From a virus (taxonomy: Duplodnaviria; Caudoviricetes), in IMG/VR virus record IMGVR_UViG_3300028596_000014, positions 1 to 57,632 of that record: a stretch of 57,632 nucleotides of DNA; one strand, written 5' to 3'. The notes beneath the pieces are model-generated. The model had not been told where the DNA came from and did not search any database. It saw only the letters and a program-made list of their open reading frames with translations. Position numbers and translations under genes: made by a program. This document shows positions 1,695 through 56,833 of the stretch, in pieces; position 1 is the stretch's first letter, and the number at the start of each line of letters is the position of its first letter.

Positions 1695-1722
1695 GGGGTG
1701 CTCCCTTGGGGTGGTGTTGCTT

Positions 1723-1740
1723 TGTGCTGACATACGTAAC
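1723..1740 (-). promoter_or_regulatory. 18-bp motif GTTACGTATGTCAGCACA copy 1 (TTGCCC-N17-TAGTGT promoter)
   Basis: Exact motif overlapping the -10 box, upstream of the 1694 start. Confidence 0.9.
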
Positions 1741-3013: not shown

Positions 3014-3550
3014 TCAGGAGTGCGAGAGGACGGTGACCTTGCCGGGGTGGACGCCGAACCGCGCCGTCGAGCGCTTGCTGTGCCCGAGCAGGTCGAGCGT
3101 GAGGGTGCCGTCGCTCGGGTCCACGTACCGGACCGACCACTTGGCCGCCTCGCCCTTGGCGAGGAACGGCTTGGTGTAGGACACGACGTCGCCGCGCTGC
3201 GGGCCGGTCGGGGCCGGGGCGTCGGGCACCTCCGCCTTGCCGCAGTCCATGCACACGCTGACGCCGTCGAGACCGGGGATGGCCGCCATCTCGTGGCCGC
3301 TCTCGCAGAGGTCCGGCAGGTCGGACAGCGCCTTGACCTGGCCGCCCGCCTTCTTGATCAGCGTGGCGAGGCCGAAGCCGTTCTTGAGGTTGTGGTCGCC
3401 CCGGACGCCGACGCGGGCGTCCGTCATGTGGTACGCCTCGTGGCTCGTGACGAACGACGGCGTCCCGGCGCGGCGGAGCGCGGCGTAGGTGTGCGTCATG
3501 TTGTCGACGTGGGCGTGGCGGCGGGCGCGGCGGGTGGTGTTGCGGCTCAT
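3014..3550 (-). CDS. Hypothetical protein, 178 aa (MSRNTTRR...)
   Basis: RBS AGGAGG before ATG 3550. First gene after motif copy 2. Confidence 0.75.
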   Translation of the reverse strand: MSRNTTRRARRHAHVDNMTHTYAALRRAGTPSFVTSHEAYHMTDARVGVRGDHNLKNGFGLATLIKKAGGQVKALSDLPDLCESGHEMAAIPGLDGVSVCMDCGKAEVPDAPAPTGPQRGDVVSYTKPFLAKGEAAKWSVRYVDPSDGTLTLDLLGHSKRSTARFGVHPGKVTVLSHS

Positions 3551-3578
3551 GGTGTTCCTCCTGGTTTGGGTGCTGCGT

Positions 3579-3596
3579 TGTGCTGACATACGTAAC
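3579..3596 (-). promoter_or_regulatory. 18-bp motif copy 2 (TTGCCC-N16-TAATGT)
   Basis: Exact motif. Confidence 0.9.
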
Positions 3597-3644
3597 ATTA
3601 GCACGTCAGCAAGGGAGGGCAACACCAAACATGTTACGAACAGG

Positions 3645-3959
3645 TTACGACTCCGGCAGGAGCGCGAGCGCCTCCTCGACGCTGAGCACGACGTCAGCCA
3701 CGGCGCCTGCCGCCCGCAGGTCCGCGATGCGCTTGCGCTGCCGGACCGTCGCGCGGTCGCGCGCGTGCGCCTCGCTCTCGCCGGTGCGCCGCTTCTTCAC
3801 CTCGAAGCCGTAGTACCGGCCGCGCAGGATCACGGCCATGTCCGGCAGCCCGCCGGACTGGTACGGGCCGCCTGCGATCTTGACGACGTAGGCGTCCGGG
3901 AACCGGCGCAGGATCGCGCGGGTGATGCTCGCGGTGAGCGTGCCCTCGGGCTGGCCCAT
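3645..3959 (-). CDS. VRR-NUC domain nuclease (Holliday-junction resolvase-like)
   Basis: GLPD...GFEVK PD-(D/E)XK pattern and Q..RI..L..AG. RBS AGGAGG. Confidence 0.85.
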   Translation of the reverse strand: MGQPEGTLTASITRAILRRFPDAYVVKIAGGPYQSGGLPDMAVILRGRYYGFEVKKRRTGESEAHARDRATVRQRKRIADLRAAGAVADVVLSVEEALALLPES

Positions 3960-4043
3960 GGGTCCTCCTGGAGACGAGAGTGGCCCGCCCCGGAGTGAGT
4001 GCGGGGCGGGCCGTGCGGCAGCCGGTGAAGGGCGGCCGACGCG

Positions 4044-4114
4044 AGGCGCTGGCGGGAGTTGAACCCGCTTGTCCGGCTTTGCAGGCCGTTCCCTGGCCGT
4101 TCGGGCACAGCGCC
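4044..4114 (-). tRNA. tRNA-Cys(GCA)
   Basis: Acceptor stem GGCGCTG/CAGCGCC, anticodon loop CTGCAAA, T arm GCGGG-TTCAACT-CCCGC, U73 discriminator. Confidence 0.85.
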
Positions 4115-4115
4115 T

Positions 4116-4191
4116 TGGCTGGCCGCTCAGGATTTGAACCTGAACCTCCCTGGGTAACAACCAGGTGCGCTGCCAGTTACGCCAGCGGCCA
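4116..4191 (-). tRNA. tRNA-Asn(GTT) with encoded CCA
   Basis: Acceptor stem TGGCCGC/GCGGCCA, anticodon arm CCTGG-TTGTTAC-CCAGG, T arm TCAGG-TTCAAAT-CCTGA, G73 then CCA. Confidence 0.9.
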
Positions 4192-4192
4192 T

Positions 4193-4335
4193 AAAACGTG
4201 ACCCCGGGCCGCTATCTGGACCCGGGGCCACGCTGGTACAGGCGGTCGGTGGTCCGCCTGGACTGAGGCCGGGACGGGGAGAACCAGAAGGTTGAGTGTC
4301 AGCACAACCACCATCTCTACCCGCCCCGGCGGTCT
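4193..4335 (-). ncRNA. Putative structured sRNA / 3' UTR element with three hairpins, antisense to the motif-derived leaders
   Basis: Stems 4268-4330, 4239-4260 and 4197-4232, the last followed by TTTT. Several mismatches are G-U only on the minus strand. The first hairpin apex reads GUUGUGCUGACA. Confidence 0.4.
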
Positions 4336-4345
4336 GAACCCTACC

Positions 4346-4996
4346 TCAGAGGCTGATGTCGGAGAGCGACAGCGTCTCCGGCTCGGCAGCCTGCGGGCGG
4401 GCGGTGGCCGGGGCGTCGTCCTCGGCCGGGGTCTCGGCGGCCCCCTGCGCCGTCGTGAACTCCTTGACCGGCTCGGCGGCGACCTCGGCCACCTCGGGCT
4501 CGGCCATCTCGTTCTCGATCGAGTTGGCCTCGTCGTAGGGCACCTCGGCGGGCTCCTCGACGACCACGTCCTGCACCTCCTCGACGGCGGTGCCGGAAGC
4601 GGCGGCGTCGGCCACGTAACGGCTGTAGCCGTCGACCTGGCTGTTGGCCGGGCGGCCCCGGTACGGCTCGCCCAGCGAGACGTCGATGAGCACCTTGCGG
4701 CGCATCCACTGGTCGGGGTTGATCGAGAGCCGCTTCTTCGGCGTGGGCAGGCCCAGGCCGTTGAGGAAGCCGACGATCTTGAAGAGGCCCTTGCCGTTGG
4801 TGACGAGCCGGTCGATGAGCACGCTGCCCGCGTACGGCCCCTCCATGATCCGGAGCCAGACGGTGAACATGTCCGCCCCGGAGGCCTTCGACTTGCCGAG
4901 TTCGTAGTCGTCGACCTGCACGAGGTACTTACCGTCCGGGACGGTGTCACCGATCATCGGCTTGTAGCCGGACAGGTCCAGGGTGTATGCACCCAT
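4346..4996 (-). CDS. DUF669-like / ssDNA-binding protein with acidic tail
   Basis: VPDGKYLVQV..ELGKSK.SG..M..V.LRI.EGPYAG pattern, long acidic C-terminus, adjacent to the AAA ATPase. Confidence 0.7.
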   Translation of the reverse strand: MGAYTLDLSGYKPMIGDTVPDGKYLVQVDDYELGKSKASGADMFTVWLRIMEGPYAGSVLIDRLVTNGKGLFKIVGFLNGLGLPTPKKRLSINPDQWMRRKVLIDVSLGEPYRGRPANSQVDGYSRYVADAAASGTAVEEVQDVVVEEPAEVPYDEANSIENEMAEPEVAEVAAEPVKEFTTAQGAAETPAEDDAPATARPQAAEPETLSLSDISL

Positions 4997-5033
4997 TTGT
5001 TTCTCTTTTCTGTGAGGGTTGTTGCTGTTTGTG

Positions 5034-5876
5034 CTACTTGCTTGCGGCCTTGGCCGCAGGCATACCGCCGATGCCGAGCGTCGTCCCGAGGGAGACGAGC
5101 GACAGCGGGGCCTTCCGACCCAGCACGGGCGGGATCCGACCGTGCAGGTGCGCCGGGACGCGCGCCTTGATGCGGTAGTCGATGTCGTTGCCGAACCGAG
5201 CGACGTGCCGCTCCTTGGGGTTGCCGTCCTCGTCGCTCTGGTCGAAGTCGGCCTCGGCCTCGCAGAACATCACGTAGTCCGGGGCGGCCAGGGTGATCGA
5301 CTGCGCACCCTTCTGCACGTCCACGGTGCGCGTGATGGTGTTGTTGACCTCGTCCTGCGTGACCTTCGTCTGCGCCGTCAGGATGACGTGCATCGGGTTG
5401 GGCCGCTCGGCGTCGGCCAGCGAGTACCAGAACGTCGGGATGTCGCTCATGATGTCGAGCGCCTGGCCCCAGGTGCGCTGGTCGGCCGGGGCGGTGCCCT
5501 GCCCGATTTCACGCACTGCCGTCTCGCTGTGGCCCAGCAGGAACCGCATCGTGGCCTTCTGGACGCCGGTCAGGGAGTCGAGGATGACCGCCTTGAAGCC
5601 GCCCTCGCCCTTGTCCAGCGCGTAGAAAATCTCGTCCAACTGCTTGATGGACTTGGGCCGGACGATGGTGATGTTCTTCGCCCACGGCGTCCCGACGAAC
5701 GACCGGGTGCCGCGCTCGCCGCGCATGTCCACCAGCAGCGTCTTGCCGAGGGCTGCGATCGTGCTCGCGAGGTACGTCTTGCCGCTGCCCTGGCTGCCGT
5801 GCAGCAGGAAGCGACCGTAGTCCTCACCGATGTCCTCGACGCCGTACAGCGTGAGGCCCGCGATCGTGTTGCTCAT
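5034..5876 (-). CDS. AAA_24 / Sak4-like ATPase (recombination)
   Basis: Walker A GSQGSGKT, Walker B VILDSLT. Start ATG 5876. Confidence 0.85.
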   Translation of the reverse strand: MSNTIAGLTLYGVEDIGEDYGRFLLHGSQGSGKTYLASTIAALGKTLLVDMRGERGTRSFVGTPWAKNITIVRPKSIKQLDEIFYALDKGEGGFKAVILDSLTGVQKATMRFLLGHSETAVREIGQGTAPADQRTWGQALDIMSDIPTFWYSLADAERPNPMHVILTAQTKVTQDEVNNTITRTVDVQKGAQSITLAAPDYVMFCEAEADFDQSDEDGNPKERHVARFGNDIDYRIKARVPAHLHGRIPPVLGRKAPLSLVSLGTTLGIGGMPAAKAASK

Positions 5877-5956
5877 CTGTCTCCAGTTGTTCGTGGGTGA
5901 GGTCCCTCTGACCTTGACCCTACATACGTAAGCATACGCTACCCGGCGAGGGTCGG

Positions 5957-6154
5957 CTACTCGGCCTCCGGCGGGAGCGCTGCGCGCACCGCTGCGTCCT
6001 TGGATTCGAGCAGTTTGCGCAGCGCCACGGTCCTCTCGGGGCTGCGCGGCAGGCTCGCCACCAGGCCGTGAGCGAGCGTGTGGAACGGCTCGCTCACGGC
6101 CCGGAGCGGCTGCGGCAGGTGGTCGAACGCGAAGTACCTCAGGATCGGTTCCAT
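5957..6154 (-). CDS. Small helical-hairpin protein (possibly Acb2/Tad1-like fold)
   Basis: ILRYFAFDHLP...LPRSPERTVALRKLLESKDAAVRA, recognised as a widespread phage protein pattern. Confidence 0.7.
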   Translation of the reverse strand: MEPILRYFAFDHLPQPLRAVSEPFHTLAHGLVASLPRSPERTVALRKLLESKDAAVRAALPPEAE

Positions 6155-6163
6155 CCAGGCAGG

Positions 6164-7297
6164 CTACGCCTTCTCGGCCAGGCCGTAGGAGGCGGGCTCC
6201 AGCCGCCGGTTGGTGCGCATCTCGTCGAGGCAGAGGTGCACGAAGTCGCAGCCCTTGCAGCCGGTGCGCGACAGGTTCCGGGCGACCGGCCCGCGCGTCG
6301 GGTCGTTGAACCGGCGCGACGCCTCCGCCTGGCCCTCGGCCGTGGCAACGGCCTCCTGGAGGTGGCCGCGCACCATGCGCGGGTTCACCGGGTCGAGCGT
6401 GCGCCGGTTCCACTTGTCGCGCTCGCCGGGCGCCTGCAACTTCTCGACCACCTTCGGGTCGCGCAGGTACTCGCCCGCCCCGCTGCCGTCCTTCTTGAGG
6501 CCCGGGAACGGCACCGGCTCCTCGGTGAAGTCGAGGTACTTGTCCAGGTCGTAGTCCGTGACGGACGCCGACAACTTGCCCGCCTTGGTGACGGCGGGCT
6601 GCGCGGCAGGCTTGCTGCGGGCACGGTCGTAGCCGACGGCCTTCACGTCGATCTTGAGGTGCACCGACACGCCCCAGGCGTAGAGGTGCAACTGCGAGTC
6701 GAGCAGGTCGTCCAGGGACTCGGTGGTGGCGATGGTGCCGTTGGTCTTGTGGTCGCGGACGACGACGAGCCCCAGGCGCTTGTCGTAGTAGACCTCGTCC
6801 ACGCGGCCCCGCAGCACGACGCCGGTGTCCGCGATCGGCACCTCGAACTGAACCTCGACCGCGAGAACCACCTCGTTCTCGCGGGACTCCCGGCCCCAGG
6901 CCGCCTCCCACCTGCGGTCCATCTCCGCGAGGTGCTCAGGCAGCGGCGCGCCCATCTTGTCCAGCCACCGCTCCTGGTCGTCGGCGGGCATCGCCTGCCA
7001 GTAGCGCGCGGCGGCGAGCAGCACGTCCGAGCCGGTGAGCGTGTCGGTGACCGGCAGGACCGGCCCCTTGTCGCCCGTGGAGACCTCGTCCGGCAGGTAC
7101 ATCGGCTCCTTGCCCTGGACCCGGCTGCGGGCGATGGCGTCGGCCGCGCGCAGCGCGTGCCACCACGAGCCGAACTCGCGGGTGATCAGATCGGTGACGG
7201 CGGCGGGCCGCAGGCGGCGGAGGCTGCTGTACTCGTACTTCTTGGGGCAGGCTCGGTAGGTGCCGAGGCTGCTCGGGGAGACTGCGATCGTGGGCAT
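6164..7297 (-). CDS. Cas4/RecB-like PD-(D/E)XK exonuclease
   Basis: SPSSL..Y..CP..Y, LRGRVD, VRDHKT, QL.LY and C-terminal CKGCDFVHLC (Fe-S-type Cys cluster). RBS AAGGAG. Confidence 0.88.
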   Translation of the reverse strand: MPTIAVSPSSLGTYRACPKKYEYSSLRRLRPAAVTDLITREFGSWWHALRAADAIARSRVQGKEPMYLPDEVSTGDKGPVLPVTDTLTGSDVLLAAARYWQAMPADDQERWLDKMGAPLPEHLAEMDRRWEAAWGRESRENEVVLAVEVQFEVPIADTGVVLRGRVDEVYYDKRLGLVVVRDHKTNGTIATTESLDDLLDSQLHLYAWGVSVHLKIDVKAVGYDRARSKPAAQPAVTKAGKLSASVTDYDLDKYLDFTEEPVPFPGLKKDGSGAGEYLRDPKVVEKLQAPGERDKWNRRTLDPVNPRMVRGHLQEAVATAEGQAEASRRFNDPTRGPVARNLSRTGCKGCDFVHLCLDEMRTNRRLEPASYGLAEKA

Positions 7298-7317
7298 GGG
7301 GCTCCTTGGGTGGGGTC

Positions 7318-7375
7318 GTTCTTCTTTCATCATCACCACACCCCCTACGGGGGAGGGTGATGATGAAAGAAGAAC
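7318..7375. repeat. Long palindrome family, copy P2 (perfect 20-bp arms)
   Basis: gttcttctttcatcatcacc (7318-7337) and ggtgatgatgaaagaagaac (7356-7375), core ccccc-tac-ggggg. Confidence 0.9.
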
Positions 7376-7630
7376 AGAGACGGTACAGAGGGCGGTACAA
7401 ACCGGCAGGTCAGGGCTGGAGGTAGGGTTCTGGAACCGTCCCGCCGTGCCCTCGCTGGAGGTGCGCACCGCGCCGTGTGTTGACTAAAGTATCATGTGCT
7501 CGGCCCCTCCACGGGGCCTCGGTGAAAGGAACCACATGACCCTGGAAATGCCGAAGGGCTGCGCCCCCAGACGCAGCCCTTCACGTAACAGCAACCCCAC
7601 CCCGACCGTGTGCGATGAAAGGACGGCGGG

Positions 7631-9841
7631 ATGAACCTCAGCCGCGAGACTACCATCAAGAGCGCGGTAGAGGCATACGAACGTGGGTATACGCCCGTGC
7701 CGGTCCGGCCGGGCACCAAGCGCCCCTTCGACTCCGCGTGGACCGCGCTGCACTACGACTCCGCCGAGCAGGTGCGCACGGCGTTCGGTGCGGAGGACTC
7801 TTCTCTGGGGATCGCCCTCGGCTCGCCGTCGGGCGGCCTGGTGGACGTCGACATCGACCACCCGAAGGCGCTCACGGCAGCGCAGATCTTCCTCCGGGGG
7901 ACGACGGCGGCCGTCAGCGGCCGGGCCTCGCGGCCGGGCAGCCACTACTGGTACGTGGTGCGCGACGGGCTGCCCGAGGGCACCACGCGGTGGCAGCACA
8001 GCGACCCGAAGCACCCGAAGCGGACCCTGGTCGAACTGCGGTCCACCGGCGGGCAGACGGTCATCGCGCCGTCTGTCCACCCCGACGGCGACGCCTACCT
8101 GTGGGACAGCGAGCCGTGGGGCGGCCCGGAGGGACCTGCCGTGATCGACGGCGGGGAACTGCGCAGCCGGGTCGGATGCATCGCACTCGGCACGCTGCTG
8201 GCCGTCGAGTGGCCCACGCGCGGCGGCCGTCACGACGCCTACCTGGCGCTCGCGGGGGCGCTGCTGGCGGAGGGCTACGACTCCACCCGCCGCGTCTCGC
8301 CGGTGTGGCGCAACCTCGCGCCGGGCATCGTCGCGGTGATCGCCCAGGCGACGCACGACGAGGAGGGGATGCAGACCCGCATCGAGCAGTCGATCGAGTC
8401 CACGCTCCAGAAGATCGCCCGGGGCAAGCCCACGCAGGGCTGGCCGACCCTGGCCCAGCACCTCCCGGAGGAGGTGGTGGACCGCTGCAAGGACTTCGTG
8501 TTCGGCATCGAGGAGGCCGAGGGCCACACCCGGCCGCCGACGGTCTCGTCTGACGACGCGTACGACCCGTACAGCGACGTTCAGACGCTCGGGGCAGCCG
8601 GGTCCGTCGAGGTGGATCTGAGCGCCTACAGCGACCAGGAGGACGACGAGGAGGACGACGGCACGCAGGACGCCGCGCAGTCCATCGCGTTCGAGCGGAT
8701 GGTCCAGCACGAGGTACTCCGGATGGAGGTCCGCGAGGTGGCGCGCGAGCGCTACGCCGAGGTCCGGGCCGAGAAGCAGTTGGCCGACAACCCGGAACTG
8801 GAGGCCCCAATCCGGACGGCGGCCGACGTGCTCACCGACGAACCGCCGGAGCCCGGCCGGATCGACCGGCTGCTGCCCTGGAACTCGTCGATGCTGCTCG
8901 TCGCACAGCGCAAGACGGGCAAGACGATCTGGCTCTGCAACCTGGCGCACTCGCTGCTCACCGGGGAGAAGTTCCTCAACGAGTTCGCGGTGCGCGCGCT
9001 GGAGCCGACGCAGAAGGTCGCGTTCCTCAACTTCGAGGTGAACGGCCCGATGCTCGCGGACGACCTGAGCAGGCGCGGCGTGCCGCTGGACCGCGTGCTC
9101 CAGGTGGACCTGCGCGGGCGGCTGAACCCGTTCAAGCACAAGTCCGTCCGGGCCAAGTTGACCAAGGCCCTGGTCAGCCACAACGTCGGGGCGATCTTCG
9201 TCGACACGTTCGCACAGGCGTTCACCGGTGAGTCCCAGAACGACACGGCCGACGTCGGCAACTGGCTGCGCGAACTCAACGAGTGGGTCCGGGCCGAGGT
9301 CGGTGCGATCGACCTGGTGCTTACGGCGCACGCAGGGTGGGACGGAGACCGGGCGCGCGGCTCGTCGGCGCTGGAGGACTGGGCCGACTCCATCGTGCAC
9401 CTGCGCCGCACGGACAAGGACGACATGACGTCCATGCGACAGATGCGGGCCACCGGCCGCGAGGACGTCCACCTGGAGTGGGGCAACCTGCCGTTCGACC
9501 AGGAGGAGCGTCGTACCTGGTACGAGGAGGCCGAGCAGGTGGACAAGGTCCAGGAGCAGTTGGACCGGATGAACGCGGCTGACGAGGCGATCCGCGACGC
9601 GCTGCGGATCGCCACCGAGCCCCTGCGGGCGCAGGAACTCTGCGACGCCGCCGGAGCACTCCCCGCCGGTCGGGGGATCAGCAACCGGGCACTCGACCAG
9701 GCGCGGCAGCGGCTCGTCACCCTGGGCGAAATTATGACGACGCGCGGCACCGGCCGGGGCTCGCCCCTGCTGCACGCGCTGGACCCGGACTACACCGAGG
9801 ACTACGGCCCGGACGAGCAGCCGGGCGAATCGGGCGAATAG
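7631..9841 (+). CDS. Bifunctional primase-polymerase (Prim-Pol) fused to an AAA_25/RecA-type helicase
   Basis: N-terminal PVRPGTKRP, GLVDVDID, H.WY, APSVHP. C-terminal Walker A AQRKTGKT, Walker B IFVDT, RGSSAL. Confidence 0.9.
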   Translation: MNLSRETTIKSAVEAYERGYTPVPVRPGTKRPFDSAWTALHYDSAEQVRTAFGAEDSSLGIALGSPSGGLVDVDIDHPKALTAAQIFLRGTTAAVSGRASRPGSHYWYVVRDGLPEGTTRWQHSDPKHPKRTLVELRSTGGQTVIAPSVHPDGDAYLWDSEPWGGPEGPAVIDGGELRSRVGCIALGTLLAVEWPTRGGRHDAYLALAGALLAEGYDSTRRVSPVWRNLAPGIVAVIAQATHDEEGMQTRIEQSIESTLQKIARGKPTQGWPTLAQHLPEEVVDRCKDFVFGIEEAEGHTRPPTVSSDDAYDPYSDVQTLGAAGSVEVDLSAYSDQEDDEEDDGTQDAAQSIAFERMVQHEVLRMEVREVARERYAEVRAEKQLADNPELEAPIRTAADVLTDEPPEPGRIDRLLPWNSSMLLVAQRKTGKTIWLCNLAHSLLTGEKFLNEFAVRALEPTQKVAFLNFEVNGPMLADDLSRRGVPLDRVLQVDLRGRLNPFKHKSVRAKLTKALVSHNVGAIFVDTFAQAFTGESQNDTADVGNWLRELNEWVRAEVGAIDLVLTAHAGWDGDRARGSSALEDWADSIVHLRRTDKDDMTSMRQMRATGREDVHLEWGNLPFDQEERRTWYEEAEQVDKVQEQLDRMNAADEAIRDALRIATEPLRAQELCDAAGALPAGRGISNRALDQARQRLVTLGEIMTTRGTGRGSPLLHALDPDYTEDYGPDEQPGESGE

Positions 9842-11822: not shown

Positions 11823-11840
11823 GTTACGTATGTCAGCACA
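11823..11840 (+). promoter_or_regulatory. 18-bp motif copy 3 (TTGCAC-N18-TAATGT, with upstream stem-loop)
   Basis: Exact motif. Confidence 0.9.
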
Positions 11841-11871
11841 ACGCAGGCACCTAACCGACCGGGAGGTCACC

Positions 11872-12279: not shown

Positions 12280-12297
12280 GTTACGTATGTCAGCACA
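12280..12297 (+). promoter_or_regulatory. 18-bp motif copy 4 (TTGCAC-N18-TAATGT, with upstream stem-loop)
   Basis: Exact motif. Confidence 0.9.
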
Positions 12298-12325
12298 GCA
12301 GGTCACCAAAACCGGAGGTAACACC

Positions 12326-13609: not shown

Positions 13610-13680
13610 GGTAGGCTGCACACATACGTAACTAGCGCGGGGCCGTCCACACGGGCGGCCCCGCTTCGTCAGGAGGACGA

Positions 13681-15726: not shown

Positions 15727-16059
15727 ATGGCAGCCAACGGCAAGGGGCGCGCGATCCGCGTCCCTGAGGCGCTGTGGGAGACAGCCAAGGCGAAGGCGGC
15801 CCAGCGGGGCGCCAAGTCCCTGGGCGACGCCATCAGGACGTTCCTGGAGGCGTACGTGAAGTCCAGCCAGCCCGCCGTGAAGGACGGCGTCGGCGTGATG
15901 CGGGCGCGCACCGGCGCCGAGAAGCGGGTGGTGTGCACGTTCTACGTGTCCAACGACCTGTGGCAGACGGCGCACGACAAGGCGGAGAGCGTTGACGAGA
16001 CGCTTTCCGCCGCGATCCTCACGTTTCTCATCGCCTACGCGAAGGACAGCGAGGCGTGA
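15727..16059 (+). CDS. Tandem ribbon-helix-helix DNA-binding protein
   Basis: Two RHH-like repeats: RAIRVPEALWETAKAKA..SLGDAIRTFLEAYV and CTFYVSNDLWQTAHDKA..TLSAAILTFLIAYA. Confidence 0.75.
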   Translation: MAANGKGRAIRVPEALWETAKAKAAQRGAKSLGDAIRTFLEAYVKSSQPAVKDGVGVMRARTGAEKRVVCTFYVSNDLWQTAHDKAESVDETLSAAILTFLIAYAKDSEA

Positions 16060-16698: not shown

Positions 16699-16716
16699 GT
16701 TACGTATGTCAGCACA
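16699..16716 (+). promoter_or_regulatory. 18-bp motif copy 5 (-10 TAGTGT)
   Basis: Exact motif. Confidence 0.9.
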
Positions 16717-16743
16717 ACGCACCACAAACCAGGAGGTTCCACC

Positions 16744-18784: not shown

Positions 18785-19014
18785 TGCCCACCATCACGGC
18801 GGCTGACGTCCGGGACGCAGCCGTTCGCATCTGCGAACGCGACGGGATTTCCCTCGCTGACCTGCGCGAACGGGTGCGTCTCGGCGGCATCGCCGCCCGA
18901 ACGAAACCGTGCCAGCAGTGCGGCACGGTCTGGACGGCCGCCCGCGAGGGCGCACGTTTCTGCTCCGGCGGCTGCCGGTCGCAGTGGAACCGAGAGAACG
19001 GGAACGAATCGTGA
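18784..19014 (+). CDS. Small Zn-finger protein
   Basis: CQQCG...ARFCSGGCR. Confidence 0.65.
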   Translation: MPTITAADVRDAAVRICERDGISLADLRERVRLGGIAARTKPCQQCGTVWTAAREGARFCSGGCRSQWNRENGNES

Positions 19015-20087
19015 AGGTCGCAGTAATCCCATCCGATACGGGAGCGTGCGGATACTTCCGTCTCATCTGGCCCGCCGAGGCGGTCCGTAGCGTCCGGCCC
19101 GACTGGACCGTGAACGTTTACCGCCCGCAGGACGTGAAGGTCGGCATGGGTCCCCGGGGCGTATCCGTTCGCGGCCTGGACCTGACCGACCTGGACATGG
19201 TCGTGATGCAGCGCGTCGGCACGCCCCGGCAGGTCGACATGGCACGCGCGCTCCAGGCGGCCGGTATCGCCGTCGTCATCGACGTGGACGACGCGCTGTA
19301 CGCCATCGACCCGGACAGCGGCTCGTACGCGGCGTGGAACGACCGCCGCTCCGCGACGCACTGGTCCAACCTGGAGGAGGCCTGCCGTCGGGCGGACCTG
19401 GTCACGGTGACCACCGACGCGCTCGCGCGGCACTACGCGCGGCACAGCCGGGTCGAGCGCATCCCGAACGGGCTGCCCGACGGCGCCTACGAGGAGCCGG
19501 TGGCGCTCTCCGGGCTGACGGACCACGTCGTGCTCGGCTGGTCCGGGGTGGCCGTGTCGCACCCGCACGACCTGGAGGTCGTGGGCGCCGCTGTGGCGAA
19601 CGTTCTCGCGTCCGACCCCCAGGTGTCCGTCAAGGTCGTGGGAGACGCTGCGTGGGCCGCAGGCGTGCTCCAGGTGCCCGAGGACCGGCTCATCGACGGA
19701 GGCCTGCACCCGCTGAACTACTACCACGCCGCGCTGGCGGGTACCGACGTGGGTATGGTGCCGCTCGCGAACACCAAGTTCAACGAGGCCAAGTCGGCGC
19801 TCAAGGCGCTGGAGTACCTCGGCGTCGGTGCTCGCGTCGTCGCGAGCCGCACCCCGGCCAACGTCGAGTTGACGCTGAGCGCGGGCACGGACGCCATGTC
19901 CATCTGCACGACGCCCGAAGGGTGGGAGCGCGCGCTGCGGCAGCAGATCGCCGCCGTGCGCTGGCACCGCGAGCACGGCACGAACCCCGGACGTGACGTC
20001 TGGTACATGAGCATCCTCGGAAGGGCCGAGGAGTGGGCGGCTGCGTGGGAACGCGCGGCGGCCCGGCGGAAGAACCTGACCCGGTAG
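19011..20087 (+). CDS. GT-B (GT4-like) glycosyltransferase
   Basis: GACGYFRLIWP, VIDVDD, ADLVTVTT, IPNG, GWSG..SH..DL, FNEAKSALKALEY. Confidence 0.85.
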   Translation: MKVAVIPSDTGACGYFRLIWPAEAVRSVRPDWTVNVYRPQDVKVGMGPRGVSVRGLDLTDLDMVVMQRVGTPRQVDMARALQAAGIAVVIDVDDALYAIDPDSGSYAAWNDRRSATHWSNLEEACRRADLVTVTTDALARHYARHSRVERIPNGLPDGAYEEPVALSGLTDHVVLGWSGVAVSHPHDLEVVGAAVANVLASDPQVSVKVVGDAAWAAGVLQVPEDRLIDGGLHPLNYYHAALAGTDVGMVPLANTKFNEAKSALKALEYLGVGARVVASRTPANVELTLSAGTDAMSICTTPEGWERALRQQIAAVRWHREHGTNPGRDVWYMSILGRAEEWAAAWERAAARRKNLTR

Positions 20088-29283: not shown

Positions 29284-29301
29284 GTTACGTATGTCAGCAC
29301 A
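29284..29301 (+). promoter_or_regulatory. 18-bp motif copy 6 (TTGCGC-N18-TAATGT), back-to-back with a leftward promoter at 29244
   Basis: Exact motif. Confidence 0.9.
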
Positions 29302-29322
29302 GCCCGAGACCAGGAGGTCATC

Positions 29323-37201: not shown

Positions 37202-37234
37202 GATTCCTCCTGGTTAGGGATGCTGCGGGGTGGA

Positions 37235-37252
37235 TGTGCTGACTTGCGTCAC
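37235..37252 (-). promoter_or_regulatory. Degenerate motif copy GTGACGCAAGTCAGCACA (15/18)
   Basis: Keeps the 3' half GTCAGCACA. No -10 box in front. Lies upstream of the 37201 start. Confidence 0.55.
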
Positions 37253-37346
37253 CCGCTCCGGACTTGCACCGGAGGCGCCTACGCGCTGCGGGCGGTGACC
37301 CAGGGTGCGGCCCGGGGGTGTCCCCAAGCCGGGCCGCACCGGGAAC

Positions 37347-37760: not shown

Positions 37761-37784
37761 GATGACCTCCGGTTTGTGTTGCGT

Positions 37785-37802
37785 TGTGCTGACATACGTA
37801 AC
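37785..37802 (-). promoter_or_regulatory. 18-bp motif copy 7 (TTGCAC-N17-TAATGT)
   Basis: Exact motif. Confidence 0.9.
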
Positions 37803-44395: not shown

Positions 44396-44416
44396 GTTGA
44401 CCTCCTCGGTAGGGGT

Positions 44417-44434
44417 TGTGCTGACATACGTAAC
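44417..44434 (-). promoter_or_regulatory. 18-bp motif copy 8 (TTGCGC-N17-TAATGT)
   Basis: Exact motif. Confidence 0.9.
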
Positions 44435-44478: not shown

Positions 44479-46083
44479 TTACCGGCCGGGGATGCGGCGC
44501 GACGTCACGCGGGCGCTGCCGGTCCGGGCGCGCTCGGGCTTCCGGGCCGCAGCCGGGTTGCCCAACTTCATCACCGCGTCGCCCTTGAGCCGCGTCTGCG
44601 CCTGCGTGTGGGCGTCCACCATGTCGTCGTGCGCGCCGGTCGGGAAGTTGCGGTGCTCGGTGAGGAACTCCGTCACCCACTCGTAGCCGGGCTCGGACGG
44701 GTGCGGGATGAGCGTGTTGCGCGCCTCCAGCGTCGGAGTGATCGCGCGGGCGCGCACCTCCTTGCCGTCGCGCGGGCTGACCGGAATCAGGCCGTCGATC
44801 TTGCGGCGCATCGTGTCGATGACCGCCGTGCCGTTGGCCTTGTCCTCGACGAGCCGAGCCGGGACGTACGGCGCGGCGAAGGCGAGCATCTCGGCCAGCG
44901 TCTGTGTGAACGTCCACCGGCCGCGCACCTGCGCCGTGAGGATCCGGTTCGGCCCGCGCCGGACCCACCGCTGCCCCACCACGTAGTCGCTGTCGCTGTT
45001 GCCCTTGAACGCGCAGTCCCACGACTCCACCCAGGTGTCGCCCGCGTGCGGGGCGATGTCGAGCAGCACGATGTCCTCGCCGTTGGCGAGCGCGGGGTTG
45101 GTCGTCCAGTAGCGCCACCACGCCATGTCGAAGATCGCTCCCCGGCTCGGAGCGGGCCGCTGCTGGTACAGCGCGGACCACACGTACGAGCCGACGTCGC
45201 GCTTGACCCCCTCCCACCGGGCCAGGGCCTCCTCAGGCGTCTCGTCCACGAGCGGGGTCAGCAGCGGCTCGCCCTCGGCTCGGCCGAGCACGTCGTCCTC
45301 CTCAGCGAGCGCCGGGAACGAGATGACCTCCCACTCGTCCGGGTCGCCCTCGTGCTCGGCCGACAGCAGCCGCCCGATGAAGTCGTCCTCGTGCCAGCGC
45401 GTGCCGATGGCGATCACCAGCGCGGGCGGCTCCAGGCGGGTGCTCGCCGTCGAGAGCCACCAGTCCCAGACGGACTGCCGCAGCACCTCGGAGTGGGCCG
45501 CCCCGAAGTCCTTGATCAGGTCGTCCAGCAGCAGCACCTTGAAGCCACGGCCGGTGATCGAGCCGCCGACGGACCGCGACAGCACCCCGCCGCCCTCGGC
45601 CGTCTCCCACTCCTGCGCGGCCCCGGCGTCGGGCGCGATGCGGATACCGAGTTCGGGGTGCTCCGTGACCCACCGGCGCACGGCGCGGCCCCACGCGGTA
45701 GACAGGCTGGCCTCATGCGAGACCATGCCGATCTTCCACTCGGGGTGGCGCCGTAGCAGCCACAGCGGCAGGTACTGGCTCGCCAGCGTGGACTTGCCCG
45801 CGCGGGGCGGCATCGAGATGGCGATGCGCCGGTTGCCGCCCGCCTCCACGTCCTTGACCGCCTGCTCCAGCCGGGCGGCGAGGTAGTCGAGGTGCGGGCG
45901 GCTGCGGTACCCGTCGTCCAACTCCTGGGCCTGCTCCAGCGGGTTGGCAGGCAGGTTGACCTGGCTCGCCGGGAGCGCGTCGAGCAGCGCGCGGGCAGCG
46001 GGCTCGGGCAGGCCGTCGAGCAGGTCGTACACCTGCTCTTCGGTGAGCCCGGCCAGCAGGCGGGTCAGTTCGTCGTCGGACAA
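44479..46083 (-). CDS. terL: Terminase large subunit
   Basis: MPPRAGKS, ITGRG..LLLDD, TRWHEDD, SALYQQRP, SWD, VEDKANG, HDDMVDA. Confidence 0.95.
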   Translation of the reverse strand: MSDDELTRLLAGLTEEQVYDLLDGLPEPAARALLDALPASQVNLPANPLEQAQELDDGYRSRPHLDYLAARLEQAVKDVEAGGNRRIAISMPPRAGKSTLASQYLPLWLLRRHPEWKIGMVSHEASLSTAWGRAVRRWVTEHPELGIRIAPDAGAAQEWETAEGGGVLSRSVGGSITGRGFKVLLLDDLIKDFGAAHSEVLRQSVWDWWLSTASTRLEPPALVIAIGTRWHEDDFIGRLLSAEHEGDPDEWEVISFPALAEEDDVLGRAEGEPLLTPLVDETPEEALARWEGVKRDVGSYVWSALYQQRPAPSRGAIFDMAWWRYWTTNPALANGEDIVLLDIAPHAGDTWVESWDCAFKGNSDSDYVVGQRWVRRGPNRILTAQVRGRWTFTQTLAEMLAFAAPYVPARLVEDKANGTAVIDTMRRKIDGLIPVSPRDGKEVRARAITPTLEARNTLIPHPSEPGYEWVTEFLTEHRNFPTGAHDDMVDAHTQAQTRLKGDAVMKLGNPAAARKPERARTGSARVTSRRIPGR

Positions 46084-46092
46084 CGGGTCTCC

Positions 46093-46881
46093 TCAGCGGA
46101 CGGGGACGGGCGGCAGATCGAGGCCGGGCAGGCGCCGCAGGGTGACCTCGGCGGTGCCCTTCGCGGCCGACCGGCGGTTGGTCAGCAGGTCGGGCCACTC
46201 TGCCACGAGTCGGTGCGTGCCTTCCTCCTGGTAGGCGGCGTCGCGGTAGACCTGCATCCCGCCCGGCTCGGTGTAGAAGCGGGTCTTGAGCGTCACGTTG
46301 TCGAGGCGGAGCACCGCGCCGTCGCGCAGGAAGTGCCGGATCGTGCGCTCGTAGTCCTCCTTCTCGTCGAAGTTCAGCACCTCGGTGGGGTCGTGGCGCA
46401 GGGTCATCCCCCAGAACGTGCCGACGATGTGCCGGAACCCGAGGTGCGCCCGGTTCGCCATGAAGTACCCGTTCCGCACGGGGTACACGCCCCACAGCGA
46501 CACACCCTGCTGCCCGGCCATGAGAAACGCACCCTGGATCAGGCCGTCCACGTTGGTCACCGACACGAGCCGCCCGGCGTCGAGCCGCTCGATGGCCCGG
46601 ATGTCGTCGTCCGCCTGCACGAGCCGGGTGCCACGCGGGTACTGCGGCTGGATCACGTTGCGGGCGCCGCGCAGGCCCGACCGGCTGCCGTGCCCGTACA
46701 CGGCGATGTCGGCGTAGCCCGCGTCGTCGAGCGCGGCGCGGTACGTGGCGACCTCCTCGTGCAGGACCCAGACGTGCACGGCACCCCGGGGCACCCCGCC
46801 GTCGAGCAGGACCGGCAGCGTGCACTTGACCAGCAGTGGCGACCGCTCCCGCGAGGGGATCGCCACGTAGTAGCCCGTCAC
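46093..46881 (-). CDS. TET-associated glycosyltransferase (TAGT-like, GT-A)
   Basis: VAIPSR.R, DDDI, WGVYP..N, EKEDYERT, PGGM. Directly downstream of the TET/JBP gene. Confidence 0.8.
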   Translation of the reverse strand: MTGYYVAIPSRERSPLLVKCTLPVLLDGGVPRGAVHVWVLHEEVATYRAALDDAGYADIAVYGHGSRSGLRGARNVIQPQYPRGTRLVQADDDIRAIERLDAGRLVSVTNVDGLIQGAFLMAGQQGVSLWGVYPVRNGYFMANRAHLGFRHIVGTFWGMTLRHDPTEVLNFDEKEDYERTIRHFLRDGAVLRLDNVTLKTRFYTEPGGMQVYRDAAYQEEGTHRLVAEWPDLLTNRRSAAKGTAEVTLRRLPGLDLPPVPVR

Positions 46882-47798
46882 GACTCGGCTGCGTTCTCGT
46901 TGCGGATCGCCGCATTGATGCGCGGCTGCCCGGTGCGCTTGCCCTGCATCAGCCGCTCTGGCTTGTAGCCGGGCGCGGCCATGCGCTCCTCCCGCTCGGT
47001 GCGCTTCCGCCGGGCGAGCGCCGTCTCAGCGGCGTAGGTGTGGCAGTCCTTGAGGCCCTGGAGCGCGTAGTAGACCACGCTGATTCGGTAGCCGCCCGGC
47101 ACGACGACGCGCATCGGGGTGACGCCGTGCACGAGCCCCTTGCCGTAGAACATCACGGCGTAGCCGTCGCGGCAGGGCACCACCATGTCGTACTCGGGGA
47201 TGTGCAGGTGCCCGCCCGCCACGCCCCGGCGCATCACGGGCATGGCCGACCACGCCTCGAAGTTGTTGCCGTCGCGGTGGTAGGGCAGCGCGGACTCGCT
47301 GTTGATGACGCCGCTGGTCCACAGGGACTCGTCGCTCAGGCGCCACTCGGGCAGCACCTTCTCGATCGTCTCCCTGTCGGCCAGTTCGATCTCCGGGAAC
47401 GCCTCACCGAGGGCCGCCCCCATCGTCTCGCTGTAGGAGACCAGGTAGGCGTGTACGTCGGGCTGCTCGTCGGCGAGCCGGGCGAGCATGCACGCCTCCT
47501 GGCCCATCATCGGCTTGCGCGGCCGGTTGCCGAACGTCCGCGACGTGTTGCGCACGCCGGACGCGCGCGGCGTCGGGCTGGAGCCGCCCATCTTCACCTG
47601 GAGGATGTTGCGCCGGAAGGCGGCCCGGTCGGGCATGGCGAGGTTGGCGAGCACGGGCGCGCCGGTGTCGGCGTCCACGTACAGCACCTCTTCGCGGAAG
47701 GTCGGGTCGAGCGCGGGCGCCTGCGTGCCGACCAGCGCGCCCGCCTCCTCGTAGGAGAGGACGCGCTGCACCGGCACGCGCGGGATGTCGCTACGCAT
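46878..47798 (-). CDS. TET/JBP-family 2OG-Fe(II) dioxygenase
   Basis: WTSGVIN..ALPYHRD (HxD), GGHL.IPE, LVHGVTP (His), YRISVVYY (2OG Arg). Confidence 0.88.
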   Translation of the reverse strand: MRSDIPRVPVQRVLSYEEAGALVGTQAPALDPTFREEVLYVDADTGAPVLANLAMPDRAAFRRNILQVKMGGSSPTPRASGVRNTSRTFGNRPRKPMMGQEACMLARLADEQPDVHAYLVSYSETMGAALGEAFPEIELADRETIEKVLPEWRLSDESLWTSGVINSESALPYHRDGNNFEAWSAMPVMRRGVAGGHLHIPEYDMVVPCRDGYAVMFYGKGLVHGVTPMRVVVPGGYRISVVYYALQGLKDCHTYAAETALARRKRTEREERMAAPGYKPERLMQGKRTGQPRINAAIRNENAAES

Positions 47799-48561
47799 CG
47801 AACGTCTCCACGCCCAGCGCCTCGCTGATCGGGTCGAAGTCGGCCGCGTCCGGCTCGGCCTCGTCGGCGGGCGCCTCAACACCGGGGAACTCCTGAGCCA
47901 GCCAGATCTGCACAGCGCCCGCGTTGTTGTCGACGCCGTAGCGCTCGCGCAGCGCCTTGAGCCGCGCCTGGATGACGGGGTACTCGCTGACGGCGTAGTC
48001 CAGGATGACGAGCCGCCGCCCCTCGGCTGCGTACGTGTCGCTGTCCTTCTTGGTCGGCACGTCGTCCTTCTTGGTGACCTTCGGCGCGGGGGTGGCGTCC
48101 AGTTCCTCCAGCCGGGCGCGCAGGTCGTCGGTGTCGTTCTCGGAGAAGCCGACGCCGGTGTAGTCGCCCAGGTTGTCGAGCAGGTCGAGCAGGCTCTCGT
48201 CCACCCAGCCGCCGAGTTCGGTGGTGCGGTTCAGCGCGATCAGCGCGGCGCGCGCCTCCGCGTCGTCCTTGGACGCCCACCCCACGATGACCGGCACGAG
48301 CCAGTGGCCGCCCGCGTCCACGCGCACGCCCTCGGGCGGAGCGTCGCCCCGGTCGCGCCGGGCCACGAGCGACTTCTTCCGCCCGTGCCCGCTGATGATG
48401 TAGCCGGTGCGGTCGTCCCGGGCGATCTGGTCGATCACGCCGAAGCGCTCCAGCGAGGCGTCGATGGTCTCCACGCTGTGGGACTTGGGGTTGGCCGGGT
48501 CCTCCAGCAGGTGGTCGAGCGGGATGTACTCCGTGCGGCGGGGAGCGGTCTCGGTCGTCAT
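47791..48561 (-). CDS. ParB/Srx-like protein
   Basis: PANPKSH, SLERFG, IISGHGR, VPV, A.AALIALNR..ELGGW. Confidence 0.88.
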   Translation of the reverse strand: MTTETAPRRTEYIPLDHLLEDPANPKSHSVETIDASLERFGVIDQIARDDRTGYIISGHGRKKSLVARRDRGDAPPEGVRVDAGGHWLVPVIVGWASKDDAEARAALIALNRTTELGGWVDESLLDLLDNLGDYTGVGFSENDTDDLRARLEELDATPAPKVTKKDDVPTKKDSDTYAAEGRRLVILDYAVSEYPVIQARLKALRERYGVDNNAGAVQIWLAQEFPGVEAPADEAEPDAADFDPISEALGVETFDA

Positions 48562-49217
48562 GCGGTGCCTCCGTAGATCTGGGCCGCCCGGTCGGGTCGG
48601 CCGCTGGTGTTCTTGCCGTGCCAGTGCCACGTCCAGGTCCGGCGGTTGAGGTGCTCGAACTTGGCCCCCAGGCCGAGCAGCCGCAGCCACAGCGCCCAGT
48701 CCTCGCAGTCGGGGTGGGGCCACGTCTCGCTGTTCGGCTCCGGGAAGCCGCCCGCCTGCACGAACAGGTCGGTGCGGACCAGCGCTGTGACCGGCACGAA
48801 GTTGGCGCTCAGCAGCCGCTCCGGGTCGAAGGGGCGGCCCTCGGCGCCGAGCGGGTCCCGGCTGTTGTCCAGGACGCCGCCCACGTTCAGGTGGAACCAC
48901 GGGTAGACGACGTCGGCCCCGGTCGCGTCGGCGTGCTCGATGAGCGCCTGGACGTGCCCCGGGTCGAACTCGTCGTCGTCGTCGAGGAAGGCGATCCACG
49001 GCGGCCGGAGGCCCGCGTTCAGGCTGTTGACCACGGCGAGGTTGCGCATGGCCGCAGGCCCCTTGCCGTCCGTGTCCACCTCGATAGCCCCGGCAACGAG
49101 CACGTCCTCGCGGATCGACTTGCACGCGCGCTTGAGCAGCGCGTCGCGGCCGGGGATGGTCGGGATGACGACGAGCGCCTGCACGTCGTCCATGGAGAGC
49201 CGCTTCGCCTCAGCCAC
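48558..49217 (-). CDS. GT2-family glycosyltransferase
   Basis: VVIPT, G.AA.RN, WIAFLDDDD, GGF, EDW.LW.RL. Confidence 0.88.
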   Translation of the reverse strand: MAEAKRLSMDDVQALVVIPTIPGRDALLKRACKSIREDVLVAGAIEVDTDGKGPAAMRNLAVVNSLNAGLRPPWIAFLDDDDEFDPGHVQALIEHADATGADVVYPWFHLNVGGVLDNSRDPLGAEGRPFDPERLLSANFVPVTALVRTDLFVQAGGFPEPNSETWPHPDCEDWALWLRLLGLGAKFEHLNRRTWTWHWHGKNTSGRPDRAAQIYGGTA

Positions 49218-50623: not shown

Positions 50624-51018
50624 AGCGCGGCCTCCTCGTCGTCGGTCATCTCGGGCAGGTCAGCCTCGTCGCGCAGCGCGTTGATCCGCTCCACGAGCAG
50701 CGCCTTGGCGCTCTCGCCGTCGATCACGGTCGCCGTGCGCGGCACGCCTGCGCGGTCGAGCAGGCTGTTGGCGGCCCGCTGCCGGTCGGCGCTCTTGTCC
50801 GCCTGGACCATCTCGCGGGCGAGCGTGCTGATCGCCGGGTCCACCAGTTCCAGCAGCCGCAGAGCCGCCTTCCGCCGCACCTGCGGGGCGCTGCCGCCGT
50901 GCGTGGCGCACACCGTCCCGCCCTTGATCGGCGGCCGTCCGCAGGGCTGCCCGTTGGTCCGCTTGGCACTGCACAGCCTCTTTGCAGAGGTCCCTACATC
51001 CATAGGTGCATCACTCAT
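50620..51018 (-). CDS. Putative terminase small subunit (HGG Zn-finger)
   Basis: CSAK...G.PC.......C..HGG and RAANSLLDRAG, upstream of TerL. Confidence 0.65.
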   Translation of the reverse strand: MSDAPMDVGTSAKRLCSAKRTNGQPCGRPPIKGGTVCATHGGSAPQVRRKAALRLLELVDPAISTLAREMVQADKSADRQRAANSLLDRAGVPRTATVIDGESAKALLVERINALRDEADLPEMTDDEEAAL

Positions 51019-51274
51019 CGGAAGTACCCCCTATACGAAACATGCTCCCCAGCACCTCGGTAAGGTGCGGATCTGGGGCCTGCCCTACCGGGTCATGGCT
51101 CCCATCGCCGTGGGAAAAGGCCAGGCGACTCGTCGAGTAGGCCTCTACAGAAGACCGCTCCAGCCTCAGCCGGTTGCGTACCCGGCTGGACATCTTCAAC
51201 TTGCCGGACTTCGCGAGATACCAGACACGCTGGCGGGACACGCCCAGGTATTCGGCAGCCTCTTTGACTTCCAC
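51011..51274 (-). CDS. MerR/excisionase-like HTH protein
   Basis: VKEAAEYLGVSRQRV..L..SGKL. RBS AGGAGG. Confidence 0.8.
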   Translation of the reverse strand: MEVKEAAEYLGVSRQRVWYLAKSGKLKMSSRVRNRLRLERSSVEAYSTSRLAFSHGDGSHDPVGQAPDPHLTEVLGSMFRIGGTSDE

Positions 51275-51490
51275 AGCGGGTACCTCCTATACGTAACATG
51301 CGGCCGGGGAGGAGCCGCTGTAAGGGATGATACACACGCGAGCGCCCCGCCCACGCCCGTGGCCCCTGTTGGTCAGGTGGCTTGGACTAGGACGGGGCGC
51401 TCGGCTTCCCCTGGTGCTCGGGCTGTGGCTCCCGGGCTCCTGCTGTGCAGGCTAGCACCTGCTGTCGCAGAACACTTGAAACCAGGGTAC

Positions 51491-54091: not shown

Positions 54092-54121
54092 GGTGAAACC
54101 CTCCGGTGTGTGGTGCTTCGT

Positions 54122-54139
54122 TGTGCTGACATACGTAAC
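54122..54139 (-). promoter_or_regulatory. 18-bp motif copy 9 (-10 TAGTGT, upstream stem-loop ~54151-54191)
   Basis: Exact motif. Confidence 0.9.
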
Positions 54140-55443: not shown

Positions 55444-55467
55444 GTGCTGATCCTTCCGTAGGTGGTT

Positions 55468-55485
55468 TGTGCTGACATACGTAAC
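55468..55485 (-). promoter_or_regulatory. 18-bp motif copy 10 (TG-n-TACGGT extended -10)
   Basis: Exact motif. Confidence 0.9.
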
Positions 55486-56793: not shown

Positions 56794-56815
56794 GGTGCCT
56801 CCTGGATCGGTGAAT

Positions 56816-56833
56816 AGTGCTGACATACGTAAC
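56816..56833 (-). promoter_or_regulatory. 18-bp motif copy 11 (17/18; upstream stem-loop ~56850-56889)
   Basis: GTTACGTATGTCAGCACT. Confidence 0.85.

Follow-up and report, generated by a model that had tools for sequence, protein, structure and literature searches.

In the tRNA cluster of phage T4, two small stable RNAs, species 1 and 2, are structured non-tRNA molecules which are co-transcribed and co-processed with the tRNAs; to our knowledge, they have no assigned function and no complementarity to a shared mRNA tag has been described for them. The C4 antisense RNA of phages P1 and P7 has its target sites at the ribosome site of a single operon, downstream of it, and the phage antisense RNAs known to us each act on one message. 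The stoperators of cluster A mycobacteriophages, on the other hand, are DNA sites bound by protein, present in temperate phages and set in one orientation relative to transcription. The relevant sections of the cited papers further describe C4 as an RNase P substrate (PMC4919922, reference 206), bacterial base-pairing small RNAs derived from 3' untranslated regions (3'UTRs), of which SdhX is an example (PMC9438474), and the RoxS-yflS pair of Bacillus subtilis, in which a small RNA at the 5' part of an mRNA affects 5'-to-3' exonucleolytic decay and not ribosome binding (PMC5419742). The element analysed here is a candidate structured RNA of 154 nucleotides (nt) on the minus strand (4192..4345) of the IMG/VR virus record IMGVR_UViG_3300028596_000014, a 57.6-kb stretch of DNA from a soil phage which, in its full length, is called the window below. 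It fills the gap between a DUF669/SSB-like gene and two tRNA genes, as the 3'UTR of the former and the 5' leader of the tRNA-Asn/tRNA-Cys precursor, and it carries the complement of a 12-nt sequence, the tag, which stands behind 11 promoters of the window. The reading that we favour, with a probability of about 45%, is that the gap gives a structured RNA of about 150 nt which pairs with this tag, common to the 5' ends of many transcripts.

On the plus strand, positions 4297-4308 read TGTCAGCACAAC, of which the minus-strand RNA is the exact complement over 12 nt. This anti-tag, GUUGUGCUGACA (4297..4308, minus strand), lies in the 5' arm and loop of hairpin 1 (4268..4330, minus strand), a long interrupted stem that presents it at an apex of GGUUG-UGCUGACACU-CAACC, i.e. 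GGUUG-U-G-CUGACA-C-U-CAACC. Its six 5' nt belong to the upper stem, and its six 3' nt, CUGACA (4297-4302), form the apical loop, whose start, CUGA, fits the YUNR-type U-turn motif, presented in the section of PMC6562991 that deals with it as a scaffold for fast antisense pairing. The exact 12-nt complement of TGTCAGCACAAC in this apex had been noticed in a preliminary description of the same stretch, where the chance of such a 12-mer in the genome was put at about 1%; a first-order Markov estimate over both strands lowers it to about 0.004. Seven exact 12-mers are present in the window, six in promoters plus the inverted copy at 4297, and 14 matches to the 12-mer were obtained with up to two mismatches vs. 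3.0 expected. The copy at 4297 has no -35, TAnnGT -10 or TACGTA upstream on the plus strand, either in the window or in two related viral contigs (G001 and G003, introduced below), and is rightly described as no promoter copy. A scan of positions 3500-8000 found no promoter-like site.

As for the structure, the gap does fold on the minus strand into three hairpins, the last stem being U-tailed, as was first proposed. The minus-strand RNA of positions 4185-4345 (161 nt) reaches -88 kcal/mol vs. a dinucleotide-shuffle mean of -68.3 (standard deviation 4.3; z = -4.63), and none of the 200 shuffles folded as well. In the window, the three-hairpin minimum free energy (MFE) of the gap is -86.8 kcal/mol on the minus strand vs. 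-74.4 kcal/mol on the plus strand, and the MFE fold holds seven G-U pairs instead of the three counted previously. Next to hairpin 1, hairpin 2 (4239..4260, minus strand) has a conserved loop, which is ACCACCGA in the window and ACUUCACCGA in three relatives (L063, G001 and G003). Hairpin 3 (4193..4234, minus strand) is a terminator-like, GC-rich stem of 16 bp followed by GUUUUA, ending 1-2 nt before tRNA-Asn. Of the two marks of an intrinsic terminator, a GC-rich stem and a U run, the window has 16 bp and UUUU, the relatives have only two to three U, and the hairpin is absent from a consensus terminator scan because that scan requires five T in eight. The element is placed as a 3'UTR-type RNA would be, on the coding strand between the stop codon of the SSB-like gene and a terminal hairpin.

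Known RNA families do not account for the gap: an Rfam scan gave only the two tRNAs at gathering score, with C4 and all other families below threshold, and a permissive Rfam scan of positions 3950-4400 gave only chance-level matches to unrelated families. Two other identities were considered for hairpin 1 and rejected, i.e. a hidden tRNA, for which there was no ARAGORN or Rfam call, and a minus-strand promoter using an anti-tag-like -35, for which no rightly spaced -10 was present in the window, G001 or G003.

The promoter core was found in five other viral contigs, two of which, G001 (59 kb) and G003 (46 kb), contain the homologous locus. Two metagenome contigs also cover the site: L063, a close variant of the window, and L064, a G003-like partial copy whose contig ends just after the apex of hairpin 1. 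These four relatives, the only ones found to extend over the site, and the window represent three independent lineages. The order SSB - hairpins - tRNA(s) - resolvase is kept in G001 and G003, the latter with tRNA-Cys only, at identities to the window of 52% and 63%, respectively, for the SSB-like protein and of 84% and 85% for the Sak4-like protein. An alignment search with Sak4 returned G001 and G003 only among the viral contigs, and seven loci among the metagenome contigs: besides L063 and L064, the G001 and G003 contigs again (L066 and L067), and L065, L068 and the more distant L069 (59% identity), which end before the site. The SSB protein search of the viral contigs gave no relatives. 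Pattern scans with a 16-nt core and with the free loop gave 15 and 14 matches, consisting of G001 plus 14 and 13 chance matches, respectively, and G003 was returned by neither even though it contains both patterns. The scan of genome contigs gave one chance match, in a coding region of a deltaproteobacterial metagenome-assembled genome.

The block GGGUAGAG-NN-GGUGGUUGUGCUGACAC-NN-AACCU is present in all five sequences (window, L063, L064, G001 and G003), and its 17-nt core GGUGGUUGUGCUGACAC, which holds the anti-tag, is invariant among them. Outside this block, and with the exception of the hairpin 2 loop, the gap is unalignable across the relatives. The inverted tag copy is found at the same place in G001 and G003, and a hairpin with a short U run, unrelated in sequence, directly precedes the tRNA in G001, G003 and L063. 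In contigs from other soil runs (X6 and X13) that extend over the gap, substitutions and indels cluster at 4192-4266, with none at 4267-4323 among the differences listed.

Concerning the base pairs of hairpin 1, compared in four sequences, 95% of the 100 pair cells are standard pairs vs. 47-56% in six slid controls, and three of the 25 pairs are changed on both sides (C-G to U-A; G-U, A-U and C-G at one position; A-U to C-G) vs. none in the slid controls. Only the 3' arm of the upper stem varies between lineages (CUCAACC to CGUAACC), and these changes point to the minus strand because the new G-U and U-G pairs would be mismatches on the other strand. The minus-strand fold of hairpin 1 is also of lower energy than its plus-strand fold in each of the three genomes compared (-36.4/-30.5 kcal/mol in the window, -34.5/-24.3 in G001 and -39.1/-36.4 in G003), and so is that of the whole gap in two of the three. 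In hairpin 2, four of the seven stem pairs are changed on both sides, with 96% of 28 cells paired vs. 18-54% in slid controls. These numbers, from three lineages only, are modest but all go in one direction. In our reading, the transcribed strand of the gap gives a structured RNA that has been conserved, with two sequence-constrained loops and a variable terminal hairpin.

The loop of hairpin 2, AC(UU)CACCGA, is kept while its stem covaries. No target was found for it, nor any obvious link with the tag; the same string, UUCACCGA, is found again in sense orientation within the leader that follows promoter 56814.

The pairing between the anti-tag and the tag was estimated as the sum of accessibility and duplex energy for 12 leaders of 61 nt each. 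Opening the CUGACA loop costs 0.15 kcal/mol and opening all 12 anti-tag nt 6.2 kcal/mol, the opening of the tag in the leaders costs 0.3 to 3.5 kcal/mol, and the anti-tag/leader duplexes range from -18.5 to -24.4 kcal/mol. The predicted net pairing energies are clearly favourable. Like the seed of a small RNA, the loop is conserved, predicted to be accessible and complementary to the leaders.

The promoters concerned consist of a -35, a spacer of 17-18 nt, TAATGT or TAGTGT, TACGTA and the tag, followed by a CA-rich leader, a Shine-Dalgarno sequence (SD) and ATG. The tag is exact behind six of them, at 3577..3588, 37783..37794, 44415..44426 (upstream of the portal gene block) and 54120..54131 on the minus strand, and at 11831..11842 and 16707..16718 on the plus strand. 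It matches at 11 of the 12 positions at 1721..1732 (minus strand, before a phrog_1221 gene and then an endolysin-like gene), 12288..12299 (plus strand), 29292..29303 (plus strand, before a plus-strand island within the tail genes) and 55466..55477 (minus strand), and at 10 of the 12 at 56814..56825 (minus strand). The first 10 nt are kept in all copies but the last, so that the promoter counts given earlier (6/11 for 12 nt and 10/11 for 10 nt) stand. A degenerate copy (10/12) without a recognisable -10 is found at 37233..37244 on the minus strand, after a structured element and ahead of the head gene block; it was said to keep the tag half only, yet a diverged upstream half is present as well (GTGACGCA vs. 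GTTACGTA). Nor does the term "early regulon" hold for the tagged units, since tag promoters precede the portal gene (44415) and the phrog_1221/endolysin-like pair (1721), and the degenerate copy precedes head genes. Tag promoters also precede many small genes.

Two types of promoters can be distinguished. The seven of type A (1721, 3577, 11831, 12288, 29292, 37783 and 44415) have a GG.GTTGC.C -35 and a TGCTAATGT-like -10 region, and the four of type B (16707, 54120, 55466 and 56814) a GTAG(C/T)-type -35 with TGTAGTGT or TACGGT. They differ upstream, the downstream part, TACGTA and the tag, being common to both, and may correspond to two temporal or sigma classes. Tag copies without a -10, at the usual distance from SD and ATG, occur in the window (37244) and in the viral contigs G001 (55053 and 21835), G003 (45306 and 23418) and G004 (33332), each directly preceded by a hairpin or a three-way-junction-like element. 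Judging from this distribution, the tag is a module of its own, apart from promoter recognition, because it is found with two promoter types and also without a -10. It varies only at positions 1 and 12, plus an A-to-G change at position 11 (the 12288 copy) which would give a G-U wobble with the anti-tag, a pattern that fits pairing with the latter. The usual distance from a -10 hexamer to the transcription start is 6-8 nt; with this spacing, the predicted start is the A before the tag or one of the tag's first two bases, so that transcripts from the 11 promoters would begin with the tag or no more than 1-2 nt away from it. The tag is also found inside at least one polycistronic leader.

Some further observations were made on these regions. 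The -35 regions of type A in general resemble the complement of the 3' half of the tag, and in one G003 promoter (44679-44715) the -35 is GGGGGTTGTGCTGAT, close to an anti-tag copy and forming an inverted repeat with the promoter's own tag. The three-way-junction-like element is conserved directly upstream of promoterless tags, at 37245-37300 (minus strand) in the window, 55053/21835 in G001 and 45306/23418 in G003. Its parts are an outer stem of 6-7 bp, a small hairpin whose loop is of the GUAG type and a T-arm-like hairpin whose loop has 7 nt. In the window and in G003, the sequences of the outer stem are entirely different, yet both of them pair. The element gave no Rfam or tRNA match and folds without strand asymmetry, and it could be a processing site making a tag-proximal 5' end.

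With regard to the mode of action, the gap RNA would be transcribed with the recombination/replication operon (exonuclease, Sak4-like and SSB-like genes). Hairpin 3 and tRNA-Asn leave no space between them for a promoter, and no promoter-like site is present there, so that production of the tRNAs would require transcription through the gap. The 3' end of the RNA would be formed either where transcription terminates at hairpin 3 or where RNase P cuts at the 5' end of the tRNA; such a cut is expected at the end of the element because tRNA-Asn starts 1 nt after it, and hairpin 3 would then be the 3'-terminal part of the gap RNA. The CUGACA loop would nucleate pairing with the first tag bases, (U)GUCAGCACAAC, and, as the bases of the upper stem joined in, the duplex would grow to 11-12 bp at the extreme 5' end of the mRNA, upstream of the ribosome site. 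The outcome may be double-strand cleavage or, on the contrary, protection from 5'-end-dependent decay, and an effect on the fate of the mRNA is likelier than ribosome occlusion because of this upstream position of the duplex. The idea that the RNA switches its targets off was a guess: the SD is located about 10-25 nt downstream of the tag, the ribosome site would not be occluded and mRNA stabilisation is equally possible.

A wider, and doubtful, proposal is that a lytic actinophage runs a tag/anti-tag circuit over its whole genome. Apart from the replication operons, practically all transcription units would be tagged, and one U-turn-loop RNA from the SSB 3'UTR/pre-tRNA leader would set the stability or translation of all tagged messages, tying late and other expression to the replication operon. 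The tag would be installed by the two promoter classes and, at some operon-internal leaders, by processing beside the three-way-junction element. The units without a tag are two divergent replication operons, with starts near 7296 (minus strand) and 7631 (plus strand), and the candidate RNA is encoded in one of them; the circuit, if real, would tie the output of this operon to nearly all other messages. A single RNA acting on the tag of all phage promoters would be a new and economical way of timing a viral programme, the conserved initial transcribed sequence would be an RNA address label rather than a promoter part, and the structured non-tRNA RNAs beside phage tRNA genes would have found a function.

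Several points weigh against a pairing RNA as such. The covariation statistics are thin, with three independent lineages only, and the tag does not differ among the five related virus records, which leaves no room for loop/tag co-variation to show. At position 1 of the tag, T, C or A is found without a matching change in the anti-tag, the whole gap of G003 shows no strand asymmetry (-100.2 kcal/mol on the minus vs. -100.5 kcal/mol on the plus strand), and a single RNA serving the transcripts of 11 promoters would need a high abundance. Moreover, a protein-recognised double-stranded DNA site would give the same sequence invariance, and orphan copies of the other promoter half, GTTACGTA, show that promoter fragments are present elsewhere for DNA-level or historical reasons. 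A rival reading is that a phage protein binds double-stranded TGTCAGCACAAC just downstream of every promoter and represses or modulates initiation, the gap copy being an extra site (a roadblock or a loop anchor before the tRNAs) and the hairpin serving an unrelated purpose. Such an orphan operator accounts equally well for the invariance of the site. The tag, at about +1 to +12 of the promoters, is in a classic repressor position, promoterless copies could act as elongation blocks, and the short asymmetric motif is indeed found at 11 promoters, with one degenerate sense copy and one inverted orphan. Candidate binders are also encoded, namely two HTH_17 proteins (51011-51274 and 54881-55063) and an Arc-like protein (15727-16059), and the adjacent GTTACGTA half has orphans too, one of them directly before an HTH gene, which suggests DNA-level regulation of the core. 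We nevertheless consider it unlikely: it leaves unexplained the 3'-arm complementarity kept by G-U-compatible changes and the placement of the site in the loop and 5' arm of a conserved paired hairpin; promoter copies are not within hairpins; in the window, G001 and G003, the orphan in the gap (4297 in the window) runs against local transcription, which is on the minus strand in the window, unlike every promoterless sense copy; and there is one orphan per genome, not a dispersed set. Were it true, a two-part core (GTTACGTA and the tag) with separate orphans for each half would make a tidy regulatory system in uncultured soil phages.

A relic would not be expected to keep 17 nt invariant amid changing stems, and a 12-nt match to the commonest motif of the genome would be a coincidence of about 0.004 if its partner were unrelated. 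For these reasons it seems rather improbable that the structured 3'UTR/pre-tRNA leader has a local job only, such as stabilisation of the mRNA 3' end, service as a processing platform, or limiting how much transcription reads through to the tRNAs and on to the resolvase-like gene, with the anti-tag as an inverted promoter fragment kept for another reason, e.g. as a protein-binding RNA loop. This possibility is not without substance: three consecutive hairpins, the last one terminator-like, stand directly before the tRNAs in all relatives, the conserved loop of hairpin 2 is of its own kind and without an obvious tag link, the 3' arm of G003 resembles the promoter GTTACGT minus 2 nt, which is compatible with descent from a promoter, and other promoter fragments adjoin hairpins, e.g. 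at 13625. As to a chance 12-mer in an ordinary GC-rich intergenic hairpin, such regions fold readily and part of the 12-mer does lie in the upper stem, but about 0.004 copies are expected per genome and diverged relatives have the copy at the corresponding position, its 17-nt core unchanged, so that chance is a most improbable explanation.

The other half of the promoter core, GTTACGTA, has 13 copies in the window vs. 0.1 expected, 11 in promoters and two orphans at 13625 and 51290. Because this half is upstream of the predicted start, its orphans must be DNA-level sites or relics. The promoter core is thus probably composite, with GTTACGTA as a DNA operator and the tag as another element, a candidate for action at the RNA or the DNA level. 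At 13625-13632 (minus strand), the orphan is an inverted half, GTTACGTATGT, located between the stop codon of a small gene and a terminator-like hairpin, before the DNA polymerase gene, and it is conserved in G001 at 31568 (minus strand). The copy at 51290 directly precedes the SD of a low-GC HTH_17 gene: in the region 51011-51297 (minus strand), TGTTACGTAT and then AGGAGG stand directly ahead of this gene, which codes for a protein of 87 amino acids. The HTH_17 protein (51011-51274) is, from this arrangement, a candidate for binding GTTACGTA and for autoregulation. Around this gene, from about 51000 to 52000, the DNA is of atypical composition, with no confident frames by G+C content at third codon positions (GC3).

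As a whole, the window has 70% G+C and is estimated to be 92% complete. PHROG and Pfam scans identified siphovirus-like genes (tape measure, major tail, major head, portal and large terminase) and genes for replication and recombination (DNA polymerase, primase, helicase, exonuclease, Sak4-like, DUF669/SSB-like and resolvase-like endonuclease), and found no integrase among the window proteins. A search of named-phage DNA with the gap region matched tRNAs only, without a close named phage, and the closest SSB-like proteins in named phages are distant ones from Microbacterium phages (34-46% identity). Read along the minus strand, the locus consists of exonuclease (from about 7296), a gene of 65 amino acids, Sak4-like, SSB-like, gap, tRNA-Asn, tRNA-Cys and resolvase-like (3962-3645). 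The DUF669/SSB-like gene (4346..4996, minus strand; Pfam DUF669, E = 2.9e-7, and PHROG SSB families) has its stop codon at 4346-4348, adjoining the RNA element. The tRNA-Asn (GUU; 4116..4191, minus strand) was called by ARAGORN and, with 59.1 bits, by the Rfam tRNA model, and the tRNA-Cys (GCA; 4043..4114, minus strand) by ARAGORN and Rfam.

A hairpin at 3975-4012 (minus strand), rich in GC and lacking a U run, separates tRNA-Cys from the SD of the resolvase-like gene; its sequence is identical in G001. At the other end of the operon, the 5' untranslated region of the exonuclease operon contains a long, near-perfect inverted repeat (7320-7375, minus strand) with a partial TGTTACGT ahead, and the matching place in G001 has TTACGTACGTAA, a perfect palindrome of 12 bp. 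Elsewhere, positions 46878-49217 (minus strand) hold a likely DNA-modification module composed of queuine tRNA-ribosyltransferase-like, ParB-like/methyltransferase-like and glycosyltransferase genes, and a second glycosyltransferase is found at 18909-20087.

Coming back to the systems mentioned at the beginning, the gap element resembles the structured non-tRNA RNAs of phage T4 in its position beside phage tRNAs. Like the stoperators, the tag is a short asymmetric motif found at promoters and at promoterless intergenic sites across the genome; unlike them, it belongs to a window without a detected integrase, and there is one orphan per genome, inverted and inside a conserved RNA hairpin. With the C4 RNA of P1 and P7, as far as the cited entry describes it, the element would share the nature of a phage antisense RNA cut from a longer operon transcript, with RNase P setting one end, which is suggested here by the adjacent tRNA (PMC4919922, reference 206). 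It nonetheless has no Rfam match to C4, even at a permissive threshold, and is complementary to the 5'-terminal tag of many transcripts instead of the ribosome site of one operon.

The closest likeness is with the 3'UTR-derived small RNAs of bacteria, to the extent that they are covered in the cited section (PMC9438474): the gap element directly follows a stop codon, shares the terminal hairpin of its operon and has a short, conserved seed, predicted to be single-stranded, which would pair with mRNAs made elsewhere. It differs from the RNAs described there in being phage-encoded and, since tRNA genes adjoin, also a pre-tRNA leader, in its proposed target, the tag of all 11 motif promoters and not a few mRNAs, and in the proposed site of pairing, at the extreme 5' end and not at the ribosome site. 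RoxS, in the part of the study that concerns yflS, is a host small RNA with a single activated target and is a precedent for the protective sign only (PMC5419742). In the literature searched, as judged by title and abstract, no relevant paper was found with the tag motif or its complement as strings. Given that antisense RNAs derived from 3'UTRs or processed from operons are already known, what would be new in this phage is the target, a 5'-terminal tag common to all the promoters of a genome.

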